Assembly: GCA_965261545.1 (NCBI GenBank)
Contig: CBDHDF010000007.1
Span: 352,001 to 416,000, forward strand
Reading direction: 5' to 3'
Length of the DNA stretch: 64,000 nucleotides
Source of the DNA: Bdellovibrionales bacterium
Lineage (GTDB): Bacteria; Bdellovibrionota; Bdellovibrionia; Bdellovibrionales; UBA1609
The position numbers and the translations under genes are program-made. This document shows positions 10,106 to 51,966 of this stretch, in pieces. Position 1 is the stretch's first letter. Each line of letters opens with the position of its first letter. The notes under the pieces are model-generated. The model worked only from the letters and a program-made list of their open reading frames with translations. It searched no databases and was not told where the DNA came from.

Positions 10106-10230
10106 CGAATAACTACCTGAGTTATTTGTAACTGCTTAACTAGTCGCTGTCGCGAAATTAAAAAGGGCCGTTTATGTGCCCTCATTTGGACTTGGGCTCT
10201 GAAGTAGCCTCTTTTTAACTTTCCCTTGTT

Positions 10231-11628
10231 CTACCCACCCTTGAAGCTTGGAGTTGGCATCGTCACCGCTAAATTTCTCATAATTTGGTGCAGATTGAAC
10301 CCCATGGTCGAGCGATACCCCGAAGCCAGTGTGGCCCCATCCCCTTTCATCTTGCTTCTTGCTAATCCAAAGTTTTTGACATGCCCTATGAGAGGTTCGA
10401 CCCCCGACCTGCGATTGTATAATTCTTCTTTCTGGGGGGCTTCGACCTGTTCTTTTACGTTGGCAGGTCTTTGAATTCCATCTGCATTTCCCACAACATC
10501 TTTGACGAGATTGACGTTGGCTTGTGAATAATACCCCTTGTCTGTTGTAACTGACTCTAAAATATCTTCGCCAAATATTTTTTGATGTTCTTCCAATATA
10601 GCTGGCAATAACTCCTTGTCGTCCATTCTCACAGAAGTGCAAGTATAGGGAACAATAAAATTTCCACCAATCCGCCCGACTTGGAAGACCCTCCCAAACT
10701 CCTTGTCTTTGCCTAACTTCCCCTTTTTGATACAGGCGACCGCACACAATTTGAAGGCAAGGATTTTGCCAGGCTTGATGGTGTGAGTTCTTACAAAATG
10801 GGCCACGTCCAAAAGGTATCTCCAAGCCTTGTCTCTCACTTCTGTGACGGCTTCTCGGTGGTTCCAAGGAAGACTCGCTAGAGCCTGTGGAGAAAGATTT
10901 TCTGCAAACCTTATAAAGGCTTTTAACTCTGACTTTACAAGACTGTGAAGGTCTGAAAATACCTCCCTCTTCTTCTCTAATACACAATTTTTGGCTAGAA
11001 AAAAATACTTTCGAGCGGCCTTGATGATGGCTTTGATATCTATGGTTATACCCGATGGTAAGTAGGTCTTCTGCTTTTCTTGAAGATACGAAAGAATTTT
11101 GTAACACTTCTGAGCCAACTTTTGCAAAAGACTGGCATCGGAGGGATAAGCCATATTAGCTTCCTGAACGGTCGAATCGACATCCAAATGAGAGGCGTCT
11201 GCAAACCCCAGGGATTGAGCCAAGCGAAGAATATAATCTCCTATTTCTTTGTGAGTCTCTTCCGTCAGTCGATTGCGAAATTTTTCTATTTTCGTATGAT
11301 CGGGACAACACCATTTTTTGAGGATATTTAGACCACAAAAAAGCTGATAACTGGCCGTCTCTTTTATCCGTTGCTCCACCCCTCGATCCGTGAGTTTGAA
11401 TAGAACCTGAAGCAGCAGCACGGCTAGATGAACTCTTAAAAAGAGCTTTCTTCCTAGCCACCAAAAACCCTTTGCAGTCGTGGCTTTTAAGTCGGGCATG
11501 ACCAGACACGACAGATAGCTCCAATCGACGTGGTTGGCCAGTTGAATCAGAGGATCGGATTCTGTGACGATAATAGATACCTTGGCAGGGTGGACCTTGG
11601 TTTCGAGGCCTTCTGGGCATAAACTCAT
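10231..11628 (-). CDS. IS5-family DDE transposase
   Basis: 465 aa; VDSTVQEAN, DKGY, RRSGVEPLIGHVK. Confidence 0.9.
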   Translation of the reverse strand: MSLCPEGLETKVHPAKVSIIVTESDPLIQLANHVDWSYLSCLVMPDLKATTAKGFWWLGRKLFLRVHLAVLLLQVLFKLTDRGVEQRIKETASYQLFCGLNILKKWCCPDHTKIEKFRNRLTEETHKEIGDYILRLAQSLGFADASHLDVDSTVQEANMAYPSDASLLQKLAQKCYKILSYLQEKQKTYLPSGITIDIKAIIKAARKYFFLAKNCVLEKKREVFSDLHSLVKSELKAFIRFAENLSPQALASLPWNHREAVTEVRDKAWRYLLDVAHFVRTHTIKPGKILAFKLCAVACIKKGKLGKDKEFGRVFQVGRIGGNFIVPYTCTSVRMDDKELLPAILEEHQKIFGEDILESVTTDKGYYSQANVNLVKDVVGNADGIQRPANVKEQVEAPQKEELYNRRSGVEPLIGHVKNFGLARSKMKGDGATLASGYRSTMGFNLHQIMRNLAVTMPTPSFKGG

Positions 11629-11684
11629 AGCGATAATCCTTTATCATGAGGTGAAACATGGTAATAAGGTTAACAGGAGGCCCA

Positions 11685-11770
11685 ATGAAAAAGAAGCAAA
11701 TCATTCAACCAAGAAGGAAAGAACTTGAAAAGGCTATTAGTGATTTTTGTGACCAATATATAAACGATGA
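11685..11770 (+). pseudogene. Truncated passenger gene of element M
   Basis: Identical to the 5' part of 49382-49822 (AGGAGG RBS, MKKKQIIQ...) and cut after YIND. Confidence 0.8.
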
Positions 11771-47738: not shown

Positions 47739-47868
47739 TATGAACCTCAATGTTCACATTATTTTTATCCATACATAAAATAAAAATGAAAATGAAATAT
47801 CCTAGTTGTTCAAGTTATTTGGTTAAGAGCCCTTAGTTAGTCGCTGTCGCGAAATTAAAAAGGGCCGT

Positions 47869-49401
47869 TTATGTGCCCTCATTTGGACTTGGGCTCTGAA
47901 GTAGCCTCTTTTTAACTTTCCCTTGTTCTACCCACCCTTGAAGCTTGGAGTTGGCATCGTCACCGCTAAATTTCTCATAATTTGGTGCAGATTGAACCCC
48001 ATGGTCGAGCGATACCCCGAAGCCAGTGTGGCCCCATCCCCTTTCATCTTGCTTCTTGCTAATCCAAAGTTTTTGACATGCCCTATGAGAGGTTCGACCC
48101 CCGACCTGCGATTGTATAATTCTTCTTTCTGGGGGGCTTCGACCTGTTCTTTTACGTTGGCAGGTCTTTGAATTCCATCTGCATTTCCCACAACATCTTT
48201 GACGAGATTGACGTTGGCTTGTGAATAATACCCCTTGTCTGTTGTAACTGACTCTAAAATATCTTCGCCAAATATTTTTTGATGTTCTTCCAATATAGCT
48301 GGCAATGACTCCTTGTCGTCCATTCTCACAGAAGTGCAAGTATAGGGAACAATAAAATTTCCACCAATCCGCCCGACTTGGAAGACCCTCCCAAACTCCT
48401 TGTCTTTGCCTAACTTCCCCTTTTTGATACAGGCGACCGCACACAATTTGAAGGCAAGGATTTTGCCAGGCTTGATGGTGTGAGTTCTTACAAAATGGGC
48501 CACGTCCAAAAGGTATCTCCAAGCCTTGTCTCTCACTTCTGTGACGGCTTCTCGGTGGTTCCAAGGAAGACTCGCTAGAGCCTGTGGAGAAAGATTTTCT
48601 GCAAACCTTATAAAGGCTTTTAACTCTGACTTTACAAGACTGTGAAGGTCTGAAAATACCTCCCTCTTCTTCTCTAATACACAATTTTTGGCTAGAAAAA
48701 AATACTTTCGAGCGGCCTTGATGATGGCTTTGATATCTATGGTTATACCCGATGGTAAGTAGGTCTTCTGCTTTTCTTGAAGATACGAAAGAATTTTGTA
48801 ACACTTCTGAGCCAACTTTTTCAAAAGACTGGCATCGGAGGGATAAGCCATATTGGCTTCCTGAACGGTCGAATCGACATCCAAATGAGAGGCGTCTGCA
48901 AACCCCAGGGATTGAGCCAAGCGAAGAATATAATCTCCTATTTCTTTGTGAGTCTCTTCCGTCAGTCGATTGCGAAATTTTTCTATTTTCGTATGATCGG
49001 GACAACACCATTTTTTGAGGATATTTAGACCACAAAAAAGCTGATAACTGGCCGTTTCTTTTATCCGTTGCTCCACCCCTCGATCCGTGAGTTTGAATAG
49101 AACCTGAAGCAGCAGCACGGCTAGATGAACTCTTAAAAAGAGCTTTCTTCCTAGCCACCAAAAACCCTTTGCAGTCGTGGCTTTTAAGTCGGGCATGACC
49201 AGACACGACAGATAGCTCCAATCGACGTGGTTGGCCAGTTGAATCAGAGGATCGGATTCTGTGACGATAATAGATACCTTGGCAGGGTGGACCTTGGTTT
49301 CGAGGCCTTCTGGGCATAAACTCATAGCGATAATCCTTTATCATGAGGTGAAACATGGTAATAAGGTTAACAGGAGGCCCAATGAAAAAGAAGCAAATCA
49401 T
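47869..49401 (-). CDS. Candidate overprinted ORF (up to 510 aa) in the -1 frame of the IS5 transposase
   Basis: Stop-free across the whole transposase; codon-junction bias described in findings; expression unproven. Confidence 0.45.
   Translation of the reverse strand: MICFFFIGPPVNLITMFHLMIKDYRYEFMPRRPRNQGPPCQGIYYRHRIRSSDSTGQPRRLELSVVSGHARLKSHDCKGFLVARKKALFKSSSSRAAASGSIQTHGSRGGATDKRNGQLSAFLWSKYPQKMVLSRSYENRKISQSTDGRDSQRNRRLYSSLGSIPGVCRRLSFGCRFDRSGSQYGLSLRCQSFEKVGSEVLQNSFVSSRKAEDLLTIGYNHRYQSHHQGRSKVFFSSQKLCIREEEGGIFRPSQSCKVRVKSLYKVCRKSFSTGSSESSLEPPRSRHRSERQGLEIPFGRGPFCKNSHHQAWQNPCLQIVCGRLYQKGEVRQRQGVWEGLPSRADWWKFYCSLYLHFCENGRQGVIASYIGRTSKNIWRRYFRVSYNRQGVLFTSQRQSRQRCCGKCRWNSKTCQRKRTGRSPPERRIIQSQVGGRTSHRACQKLWISKKQDERGWGHTGFGVSLDHGVQSAPNYEKFSGDDANSKLQGWVEQGKVKKRLLQSPSPNEGT
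47928..49325 (-). CDS. IS5-family DDE transposase, copy 2
   Basis: 465 aa; AAAGGA RBS; near-identical to 10231-11628. Confidence 0.9.
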   Translation of the reverse strand: MSLCPEGLETKVHPAKVSIIVTESDPLIQLANHVDWSYLSCLVMPDLKATTAKGFWWLGRKLFLRVHLAVLLLQVLFKLTDRGVEQRIKETASYQLFCGLNILKKWCCPDHTKIEKFRNRLTEETHKEIGDYILRLAQSLGFADASHLDVDSTVQEANMAYPSDASLLKKLAQKCYKILSYLQEKQKTYLPSGITIDIKAIIKAARKYFFLAKNCVLEKKREVFSDLHSLVKSELKAFIRFAENLSPQALASLPWNHREAVTEVRDKAWRYLLDVAHFVRTHTIKPGKILAFKLCAVACIKKGKLGKDKEFGRVFQVGRIGGNFIVPYTCTSVRMDDKESLPAILEEHQKIFGEDILESVTTDKGYYSQANVNLVKDVVGNADGIQRPANVKEQVEAPQKEELYNRRSGVEPLIGHVKNFGLARSKMKGDGATLASGYRSTMGFNLHQIMRNLAVTMPTPSFKGG

Positions 49402-49822
49402 TCAACCAAGAAGGAAAGAACTTGAAAAGGCTATTAGTGATTTTTGTGACCAATATATAAACGATGAGTATAAAAACCTCTGTCACGGTGTAGTAGCAAG
49501 AATGTCTCGAAAAAGACAAGTCCCTTACATGACAGGAAGAGTAGAAATTTGGGCTGCGGGGATTATTCATGCCATTGGGAGAATTAACTTTCTTTATGAT
49601 AGCAAGACGTCACCATATGTTTCCATGGATGAGATTGTTGAGCACTTCAACACATCAAAAAGGACAGTGGGGCCAAAAGCAAAAATCATCATGGATATGT
49701 GTAAAATGAACCATTTTGACCCAGAATTCTCTACTCGCTATCTTCAGGAGAGGAGTCCATTTAAAAATCTTATGCAAATTGAAAATTATATTTATCAAAA
49801 AGACCACCTTGAAGCTGAATGA
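49382..49822 (+). CDS. DUF6398-like passenger protein
   Basis: AGGAGG RBS; IWAAGIIHAIGRINFLYD motif; lies inside the IRs of M. Confidence 0.75.
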   Translation: MKKKQIIQPRRKELEKAISDFCDQYINDEYKNLCHGVVARMSRKRQVPYMTGRVEIWAAGIIHAIGRINFLYDSKTSPYVSMDEIVEHFNTSKRTVGPKAKIIMDMCKMNHFDPEFSTRYLQERSPFKNLMQIENYIYQKDHLEAE

Positions 49823-50015
49823 TGGATTTCTTAAGTCTATTTCGCGACAGCGACTAGTTAAAGAGATAGTTATTGTTCAAATATAACTATTGCGATTCCA
49901 CCCTTTTTAAAGTGACTGTGTAGAATATTGAAAGTCATGTCTTTAGCTCCTAGGCTATCTGTCCAGCAGCGCAAAGTCACAGAATCTCCTGATTCGTTCA
50001 TTTGAATACGGTCAA

Positions 50016-50289
50016 TGAGGTGGACCCCAATGTCAGACTGAAAAACTTGATTTTTAAGCTACACCACAGCGCATAAAGAAGCCCCGTGTTAATGTGTTAA
50101 ATCCACCTCTCCCATATGCACCTGATAAGGGGTGCAATCCTGAAGAGACTGGTGTGGCCTTTTATTATTATAAAAATTAAAATACGTTTTAAAACCTTTG
50201 TTGGCTTGAACCATTGATTTGTCTTGATAGCCTTTCAAGTAAACCTCTTCGTACTTAACAGACCGCCAAAGCCGCTCGATCATGATGTT
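50016..50289 (-). pseudogene. IS3 right-end fragment
   Basis: Near-identical to 11985-12258; cut by IS21 E. Confidence 0.9.
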
Positions 50290-50435: not shown

Positions 50436-51966
50436 GTGTCTATGGGCAAACAAGGTAAGAAAAAAGGAGCAAGAATGATCAACAATATTAAGAAATACAT
50501 AGAGCTTGGACTCAGTTCGAGACAAATAGCTCGAGCTATGGGTGTTAGTCGGAACACTGTGAAGAAGTATGTGAAGGATAGTCCCGGAGGCCCTAACAGC
50601 CGCTCAAAGGGGTCGCATGGGCCCTACCAAGCCCCATGGTCATCCAAGGTGAATTGGACAGATGTTCGCCTCAAGCAAAGCCTAGGGACTCAATTGGCTC
50701 ATTACTGGGAGCGACATATTCAGTCCGAGATTGACGGTGTGAGTTATCTTTCTTTTTGGAGAGAGTTTCGTCGGAGGCACCCAAGTATAAAGCTTGATAT
50801 GCACCAGACATTCACCCCTGGTGAACGGAGCCCGGAGTGAGTTTGACTATAAGGGAAAAGACTCTTGTTTTGGCTATACAGATGCCAAGACTGGGGAGTT
50901 CATCCCATGTCGATTATTTGGAATGATACTTCCATCGAGTCAGTTTTTCTTTCCATGCGCCACATTAACAGAGCAGCGGGAAGATGTTTTTTCCTCCATA
51001 GCTTCTGGTTTTGAGTTTTTTGGTGGTGTGACCGGAACCATTGCTTTTGATAACGCAAAGGTTCAAGTGACAAGAGCTGATACTTATGACCCCGATATTA
51101 ACTCTGAGTTTCACCTCTTGTGTGATCACTACAATGTGGCTCCTTTGGCGATGAGGCCATCTCGCCCCAAAGACAAGAGTCTTATCGAAAATACCCTTGG
51201 AGTCTTTTGGCGCTGGTCTTGGCCCCAGATAAGAGAGCGGCAAATGTATTCTCTAGCAGACATCAACGCTGAGTTGAAGCATTTGGCAGCTATTTTCAAT
51301 GATCGTATTCAAAAAAAGTATGGGTTGAGTCGTCGACAGAAGTTTGAATCTTTTGAGAAGTCAAAATTGAATCCTCTTCCTGAAAGACGCTATGAGAGTG
51401 GATTCTGGAAGCATTCCAAGGTTCATCCGGATTGTCACATTCAATATAACTACAATTTTTACTCTGTTCCTTATAAGCATCGCGGCAAGAAGTTAGATAT
51501 TCGTATTAGCCAACAATGCTTGGAGGTTTATTCAGAATTAGAGCGGGTGGCGATACATCACATCCCCCAGGGAAGTCGAGGGCGCTACTTTACGACAAAA
51601 TCTCATCTCCCTGAGTCCCACCGGGCCATTTTAGAGCAAACGCCACAAAATGTACTTAAAGAGGCATCAAGCCTTGGAGAAAGCATTCACAAAGTTGCCG
51701 AGCGGCTTATCAAAGAGCCTCGCCATCCGCTTATGTATCTTCGTCGTGTTCAGGGGATACTCAATCTAAGAAAACGGTATTCAACAGCTTCTTTGGAGCA
51801 GGCTTGCTCATTTTTTGTAGATGCAGCTTTAAGTGACATTAGGGTTCGTGGAGTTGAGAAAGTCATTTCAGCAAAAAGTCATCGAAAAGAGGAGCCAAGA
51901 GTCTGCCGTCAACCTAATGAAAATTTAAGAGGTTCAGAGCACTGGGAGAATGCTTGCCGCCACTAA
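50436..51966 (+). pseudogene. istA: istA frameshifted by a 7-bp insertion
   Basis: Deleting 50831-50837 joins the two ORFs into PGERSEFDYKG. Confidence 0.85.

Follow-up and report, generated by a model that had tools for sequence, protein, structure and literature searches.

The window analysed here is a 64,000 nt stretch from a Bdellovibrionales bacterium (NCBI GenBank assembly GCA_965261545.1, contig CBDHDF010000007.1, positions 352,001 to 416,000 of the forward strand), and it contains a complete IS5-like insertion sequence (IS) whose transposase gene is overlaid, from end to end, by a second reading frame without stop codons. The IS occupies positions 47840-49854 on the minus strand and measures 2015 bp, with its ends set by comparing the flanks of five copies. 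Its transposase gene (47928-49325, minus strand) encodes a DDE transposase of 465 aa with DUF772 and DDE_Tnp_1 domains, both of which exceed their Pfam gathering scores (PF05598, 42.4 bits with a cut-off of 23.1; PF01609, 27.7 bits with a cut-off of 23). The stop-free frame lies on the same strand at an offset of +2, equivalent to -1, and runs for 510 codons from its first ATG to a TAA codon at 47869-47871 (47869-49401, minus strand); it encloses the whole transposase open reading frame (ORF) and ends 30 nt inside the IS tip. In-frame ATG codons at 49401, 49356, 49344 and 49317 correspond to positions -76, -31, -19 and +8 relative to the transposase ATG. An initial annotation, made by reading the sequence, had already described a 510-codon -1 frame extending from upstream of the transposase ATG to about 30 bp inside the inverted repeat, together with these four ATG codons, and both descriptions are correct.

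The element is bounded by two perfect 16-bp terminal inverted repeats (IRs). The transposase-distal repeat lies at 47840-47855 (GTCGCTGTCGCGAAAT) and is also found in the relative L121; the other, on the side of a divergent passenger gene described below, lies at 49839-49854 and was located by a search for IR pairs and by flank comparison. Directly outside them is a 6-bp target-site duplication, TAGTTA (47834-47839, with its right copy at 49855-49860). The genome holds about five near-identical full copies of the IS, plus fragments; each full copy is abutted at its IRs by its own 6-bp direct repeat, and the duplication differs between copies. Read on the transposase strand, the duplications are TAACTA, TAACTA and AAGTTA; the plus strand of the window reads TAGTTA, the relative L121 has TAGCTA, and the flanks of the remaining IS copies read TATCTA and TAGTTA. 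These sequences suggest a target preference that is near-palindromic and contains TAG/CTA. The transposase scores 174.3 bits with the NCBIfam model transpos_IS5_1 (NF033578) and 141.3 bits with transpos_ISNCY_1 (NF033593), below their equivalog cut-offs of 275 and 325, respectively. By its domain content, IRs and target duplication, the element is an IS5-family IS in the broad sense.

The absence of stops in the -1 frame was evaluated by synonymous permutation, in which codons are swapped among positions of the same amino acid, preserving both the protein sequence and its codon usage. Across 20,000 permutations of the window's transposase gene, the -1 frame contained 28.0 ± 3.6 stops, with a minimum of 15, compared to an observed count of zero; the synonymous shuffling that the initial annotation had proposed as a check has thus been carried out, and it never yielded a fully open -1 frame. 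The +1 frame of the same gene contains 32 stops, compared to 28.5 expected.

Relatives of the element were sought in the genomes of 61 relatives, in 401 genomes of the phylum, in a collection of species-representative genomes and in metagenome contigs, where 80 of 409 confirmed loci were kept. Stop-to-stop ORFs of at least 380 codons were retained when they matched a hidden Markov model (HMM) of the homologue alignment, exact duplicates and ORFs containing N were dropped, and each homologue ORF was permuted synonymously 300 times. The tree set comprises the 87 ORFs with an HMM score of at least 300; the lower scorers excluded from it include L125, the G008 family and the true IS5_1 members. 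Across these 87 distinct homologous ORFs, the number of -1-frame stops is bimodally distributed, though the elements are related and not independent, so that all such counts overstate the support. In particular, 43 ORFs have zero stops, compared to 7-29 expected, over a guanine-cytosine (GC) content of 0.39-0.61; eight have one or two stops, located in three cases within the last 100 nt; and 36 have 4-77 stops, a number that in most of them is close to the expected one. In the +1 frame, the homologues always carry about as many stops as expected. For example, the open lineages include the window copy (0 stops versus 27.9 expected), L002 (0 versus 24.1), L003 (0 versus 16.3), L004 (0 versus 20.6), L006 (0 versus 28.4) and the distant L125 (0 versus 19.7). 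The open frame thereby reaches lineages whose transposases are only 24-28% identical to the one in the window, namely L006, the clade of L002, L003, L004 and L119 (0 stops versus 16-24 expected) and L125.

The trait was mapped on a quick maximum-likelihood tree from IQ-TREE alone, which places the open state on the deepest branches and the closed state in derived clades, with about five to six changes needed. One closed clade accounts for 27 rows, including Candidatus Arcanobacter copies at 44% identity to the window transposase. The open frame is dispensable, as several derived clades have lost it and keep intact transposase ORFs. Scattered stops in diverged intact homologues, which the initial annotation had named as a finding that would speak against selection, do occur in the derived clades (36 of the 87) and are absent from the others. 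Moreover, some closed lineages have significantly fewer stops than expected (L082, 18 versus 39.6; L122, 20 versus 36.7; the G008 family, 42 versus 58.7), a deficit that looks like incomplete decay from an open ancestor. L123, L131 and L135 are likewise stop-deficient closed relatives, and the G008 family consists of L005, L015 and L017.

None of the true NF033578 and NF033593 members examined has an open -1 frame, their observed stop counts being 33 versus 38.4 expected (L130), 25 versus 34.7 (L131), 38 versus 47.2 (L153) and 38 versus 44.8 (L154). A homologue on a Legionella pneumophila plasmid (L145, 38% identity) is also closed, with 30 stops. L145 (NZ_CP016875.1, 15237-19601) is situated on a conjugative plasmid, directly downstream of a reverse transcriptase/maturase gene and upstream of a tyrosine recombinase and a Tn3-family transposase, within a mosaic of mobile elements.

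The genetic code specifies how a -1 frame can be kept open. A -1 stop arises only where a codon ending in T precedes one that starts with AA, AG or GA, and replacing such a final T by C never changes the amino acid; because of this synonymy, -1 is the one alternative frame that can be opened at no cost to the transposase protein. The price of openness is purely synonymous and consists of a third-position C in place of T before codons starting with AA, AG or GA. When -1-frame triplets are pooled over 20 non-redundant open members, TAA, TAG and TGA each occur zero times, compared to 245, 66.5 and 158.6 expected occurrences, respectively; in the same members, TAT, TGG, TGC, TGT and TCN are at or above expectation and TAC is slightly below it (80 versus 95.5). 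The purge is specific to stops and specific to one frame, and therefore translation is the sole process known to us that is able to read it.

Further, the synonymous sites themselves have not been held in place. Nei-Gojobori estimates on closer pairs yield ratios of nonsynonymous to synonymous divergence (dN/dS) in the transposase of 0.064-0.183 for open pairs (32 pairs with a defined dS, from 33 examined), with dS values up to about 2, and of 0.056-0.655 for closed pairs (45 pairs; 0.056-0.24 without two near-identical pairs at 0.28 and 0.655). Synonymous sites are fully turned over without the appearance of any stop and without the slowing expected of a second coding constraint. Overall, there is strong and ancient purifying selection against TAA, TAG and TGA only, acting in the -1 frame across the whole transposase gene, and it is seen both in the window copy and throughout a deep clade of IS5-like elements.

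The same genome supplies a survey of other genes and a dead copy of the element. Among its 1835 stop-to-stop ORFs of at least 300 codons, eight have three or fewer stops in the -1 frame, and six of these are copies of the present IS (five with zero stops and the truncated copy M1 with one). The other two are alternative frames of tandem-repeat protein genes, with two and three stops; they are open because the repeated unit itself lacks stops. One of these repeat genes (C10:488645-489733) encodes a Gly/Thr/Ala-rich repeat at a GC content of 0.63; the other lies on the minus strand of C7, outside the window (reverse-complement 153300-155438), and has repeats of about 23 residues with a PDTSGW(N/S)TSNV motif. 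A second IS of similar size in this genome serves as an internal control: it is a true ISNCY_1 member (NF033593, about 410 bits) with at least five copies (L154 and L157-L160, at C2:94726-96027, C2:358556-359857, C2:410949-412250, C2:570922-572223 and C11:375229-376530), its transposase frame is open for 463 aa, and its -1 frame, counted above for L154, is not open. M1 (10135-11770, minus strand) lacks the passenger-side end, is presumably immobile and differs from the master copy at six positions. Its -1 frame is broken once, at 11158 (48855 in the master copy), by a GCC to GCT change that leaves the transposase sequence unaltered and, in the -1 frame, makes a TAA out of CAA; this silent change and the stop it creates had been described correctly in the initial annotation. 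Its central proposal, that selection keeps this frame open, is borne out by the shuffles, by open homologues down to 24-28% identity and by the decay of the dead copy M1.

The -1 frame of open elements becomes free of stops some tens of nt ahead of the transposase ATG. A candidate start codon usually lies 16-28 nt upstream of that ATG, most often at -22, where the codon varies among relatives between ATG, GTG and TTG. A contiguous ATG, GTG or TTG start at -36 to -10 is present in the -1 frame of 35 of 48 distinct open elements versus 5 of 32 closed ones, with the elements in both groups being related; in the other two frames of the open elements, such a start occurs in 2 of 48 and 9 of 48. Shine-Dalgarno (SD)-like pairing of -5 kcal/mol or lower is found at 50% of the -1 starts (n = 36), at 56% of the transposase starts and at 23% of 400 control positions, a modest enrichment that is biased upward since the best of several candidate starts was taken. 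In the window copy, judging by its relatives, the likelier start would be the ATG at 49344 (-19) or the one at 49356 (-31). At its other end, the -1 frame of most members stops about 60 nt past the transposase stop. Because this is roughly the distance expected by chance, the constraint tracks the transposase ORF.

The encoded product shows no sign of being conserved. Its conservation was compared to a null in which synonymous codons were shuffled under a no-stop constraint in the -1 frame. The -1-frame identity in 16 deep open pairs is 0.12-0.30 and equals this constrained null (z from -0.0 to 3.3), and nine closed control pairs behave similarly (z from -2.0 to 3.5). Net charge (0.1010 versus 0.1003 in the null) and hydropathy (-1.023 versus -1.012) also match. 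The window product has an isoelectric point (pI) of 10.5, is rich in Ser, Arg, Gly and Gln, and contains 19 Cys residues. The 510-aa product has no match in Pfam or NCBIfam, an alignment of 16 -1-frame products contains no invariant column, and a search of 5.8 billion proteins returned no homologue save a chimeric ORF from the window's own genome. An AlphaFold2 model from the 16-row alignment has no confident fold (mean predicted local distance difference test score, pLDDT, of 34.0; predicted template modelling score of 0.15). The suggestion of the initial annotation that the frame encodes a basic protein rich in Arg, Ser, Gly and Gln is not upheld, given a composition equal to the null, free synonymous sites and the lack of a homologue or a confident fold.

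Over 76% of its length, predicted protein P0003 (425 aa) matches the transposase at 99% identity, and a further match, at 76%, covers 19% of the -1-frame product. P0003 is apparently a chimeric ORF from a copy that was frameshifted or degraded, so that the two frames became joined.

Several candidate explanations were considered and rejected. An antisense gene is rejected by the 22-25 stops in each of the three antisense frames over the transposase. A cause at the DNA level, such as the avoidance of the element's own TAG-type target sites, is rejected because the same triplets occur at their expected number in the +1 frame, and a general avoidance of T at codon junctions is rejected because TAA, TAG and TGA are the only triplets absent. 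A trait common to the named neighbouring families is rejected, the true NF033578 and NF033593 members and the L. pneumophila homologue being closed. A conserved hidden protein is rejected by the missing family match and homologue, by conservation at the level of the null and by the pLDDT of 34.

The interpretation that fits these data best, to which we assign an even chance, is that ribosomes in the -1 frame escort a rarely initiated transposase mRNA, with their uninterrupted passage, and not their product, being the object of selection. Translation of the -1 frame would begin at a start codon of its own, located 16-28 nt ahead of the transposase ATG; as both starts lie within one ribosome footprint, initiation at one would exclude initiation at the other. 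Selection would act to keep ribosomes from being released until they reach the end of the transposase gene. These escorting ribosomes would cover the transposase mRNA, shielding it from Rho-dependent termination (polarity) and from degradation, and would prevent termination and re-initiation events within the gene. Transposase output would be kept low by the ratio of the two starts, and the product would be an unstructured, basic chain, rich in Ser, Arg, Gly and Gln, without a function of its own. The frame has the features of a regulatory ORF, with its openness conserved, its sequence not conserved and its candidate start overlapping the initiation region of the main gene; on these sequence features, a regulatory or anti-polarity role, which the initial annotation had raised as an alternative to a protein-coding one, is favoured.

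Other explanations place the selection elsewhere. It is rather unlikely that the frame encodes a genuine overprinted protein, long, disordered and basic, for example a nucleic-acid binder or a modulator of transposition, in which length and bulk composition matter and the sequence drifts. Such a protein would be consistent with the frame's candidate upstream start codon, with the full length kept in 43 of the 87 relatives and with the high pI, the composition rich in Ser, Arg, Gly and Gln, and the few residue frequencies that depart from the null, and overprinted viral proteins are typically disordered. However, the identity of the product does not exceed the constrained null even at 50% transposase identity, dS is not reduced, and charge and hydropathy are exactly those that the transposase frame imposes; moreover, the 19 Cys residues are accompanied by no predicted structure, the frame terminates about where chance would place its next stop beyond the transposase gene instead of at a conserved C-terminus, and gene finders have called no homologue among the 5.8 billion proteins. 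The openness of the -1 frame upstream of the transposase ATG, together with a start codon there, argues against ribosomal -1 frameshifting or transcriptional slippage, according to which N-terminal transposase fragments with -1-frame tails would regulate transposition by the logic of IS1 and IS3; a single shift site would need openness downstream only. Frameshift-controlled product ratios are common in IS elements, A6 runs occur in the gene, and an open -1 frame would give a long product after any slip, but the explanation is improbable. By eye, no conserved slippery heptamer was noticed in the aligned N-terminal and A-run regions, where no formal scan was run.

The open frame could also be a by-product without a translated role, arising from robustness to frameshift errors or mutations (by avoiding truncated DNA-binding fragments) or from a codon-context constraint. 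As openness is free at the protein level, weak forces could suffice, and the constrained null also predicts more Tyr codons (TAY), which are one mutation away from a stop, than are observed. Yet 16-29 sites are unlikely to have been kept at exactly zero by second-order selection while synonymous divergence reached saturation, the purge affects stops and not T|A or T|G junctions, and the linked upstream start codon is left unexplained, which makes a by-product quite improbable. Chance or base composition is barely credible. GC-rich genes have long alternative ORFs in general, and expected stop counts are lowest (about 7-13) among the GC-rich members, with nothing else in its favour beyond this general tendency; by contrast, none of the 20,000 shuffles fell below 15 stops, the open frame recurs in independent lineages with GC contents of 0.39-0.61, and the element is a genome-wide outlier. 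This explanation is rejected by synonymous shuffling of the window copy and of each homologue.

Several observations weigh against translation of the -1 frame as an escort for the transposase mRNA. Of the 87 relatives, 36 lack the open frame and nonetheless have intact transposase ORFs; two closed copies are found on one contig, and near-identical closed copies on several metagenome contigs. Because the closed clades have intact ORFs in several copies, neither escort translation nor the open frame is essential for transposition. No RNA run was listed as containing the element, an outcome that points neither way. The evidence for initiation is uneven: 13 of the 48 open elements have no canonical start at -36 to -10, L003 has no ATG anywhere in its -1 frame, the candidate window starts at 49344 and 49356 have no obvious SD sequence by reading, and the enrichment of SD-like pairing is modest and upwardly biased, as stated above. 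The frequencies of some residues in the product differ from those under the constrained null (z = -6.3 for Tyr, -6.0 for Thr and +5.3 for Ser), and these deviations could be due to codon-context bias or to weak selection on the product. Lastly, the rationale in terms of Rho and polarity draws on general knowledge and not on the present results.

The remainder of the element is taken up by the passenger gene (49355-49822, plus strand), which encodes a member of the DUF6398 family (Pfam PF19935, 131.9 bits) and is placed between one IR and the transposase start in divergent orientation. Its true start is probably an internal ATG at 49382, which follows a GGAGG motif read by eye. The passenger gene and the stop-free frame, which are on opposite strands, overlap at their 5′ ends. 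Full-text literature searches found nothing on DUF6398. The relative L121 has IRs as in the window, and its IS is only 1593 bp long (1383-2975, with IRs at 1383-1404 and 2954-2975), with no ORF of at least 80 aa at the place of the passenger. Its -1-frame GTG lies at 1479, its transposase ATG at 1501, its transposase stop at 2877 and its -1-frame stop at 2927. Because L121 has the same IRs and lacks the DUF6398 gene, the passenger represents about 420 bp of acquired cargo. The initial annotation's picture of a three-ORF IS consequently applies to the window copy, with its DUF6398 passenger, and does not extend to the element in general, as the passenger is an add-on absent from L121.

Beside the IS, the window contains a short ORF at 50089-50283 (minus strand), which resembles an IS3-type integrase at its C-terminal end, and another at 50436-50840 (plus strand), which has a helix-turn-helix-like N-terminus and resembles IstA of IS21. 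Together, these ORFs suggest that the neighbourhood of the IS is an IS-rich patch.

A second frame under selection against stops only would be invisible to gene finders and to screens for overlapping genes that rely on dN/dS, and it cautions against reading a functional protein into every long conserved ORF. A simple genome-scale screen is suggested by these results, combining a deficit of stops relative to synonymous shuffles with a lack of amino-acid conservation. If translation of the -1 frame does control the integrity or initiation of the transposase mRNA, then it would constitute a new layer that keeps IS transposition low, and not zero, it would provide a natural system for ribosome-dependent protection from Rho or RNA decay, and the frame would be an ORF under strong selection for openness alone. 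The repeated losses of the frame, in 36 of the 87 relatives, are built-in comparative controls.

Full-text searches, with subscription journals and ISfinder/TnPedia outside their scope, turned up no account of an IS transposase gene overlain along its full length by a stop-free alternative frame, and the novelty of this second frame is provisional. The nested genes of phages of the phiX174 type are a known case of same-strand overprinting. Within an IS, the astA gene (EAST1) is embedded in the transposase gene of IS1414, according to a passage of PMC3454372 that cites McVeigh 2000. The present frame is similar to both, in that it is a second same-strand ORF inside a transposase gene or an essential gene, in the present case with a candidate initiation codon of its own. 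Those ORFs differ in being short and in having a defined and conserved product. The astA gene has a few dozen codons; in contrast, the present frame spans the whole gene and both flanks (480-540 codons), and it is the openness, and not the sequence, that is conserved.

IS1 (InsA/InsAB′) and the IS3 family (OrfA/OrfAB) are two-ORF ISs that use programmed -1 frameshifting. The proposed role of the present frame would be similar to theirs, in that the -1 frame of an IS sets the transposase output and translation choices at the 5′ end decide the product ratio. In IS1 and IS3, however, it is the -1 frame that carries the catalytic domain, and the two ORFs overlap over a short distance; here, a single frame holds the whole DDE transposase with both of its Pfam domains, and nothing recognisable is encoded in the -1 frame. 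The element shares with IS5 (NF033578) and ISNCY (NF033593) its DUF772 and DDE_Tnp_1 domains, a length of about 450 aa, short IRs and TAG-containing target duplications; unlike IS5_1 and ISNCY_1, whose true members, as far as examined, do not have it, the present element has an open -1 frame.

In leader peptides and in regulatory upstream or overlapping ORFs, it is the act of translation that matters, through attenuation, translational coupling or anti-polarity. The present frame resembles them in having no sequence constraint, in a candidate start that overlaps the main initiation region and in a presumed effect in cis through ribosome occupancy. Known regulatory ORFs have tens of codons and end near the main start; here, the frame has about 500 codons, making it about ten times longer, and, unlike them, it cannot close before the main gene ends. 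The -1 frame may tentatively be viewed, with somewhat less than an even chance, as a clade-wide 'escort' frame of about 500 codons, a sequence-independent regulatory ORF that spans a whole gene and, by combining anti-polarity or mRNA shielding with competition between the two starts, would represent a new type of post-transcriptional control of transposition.

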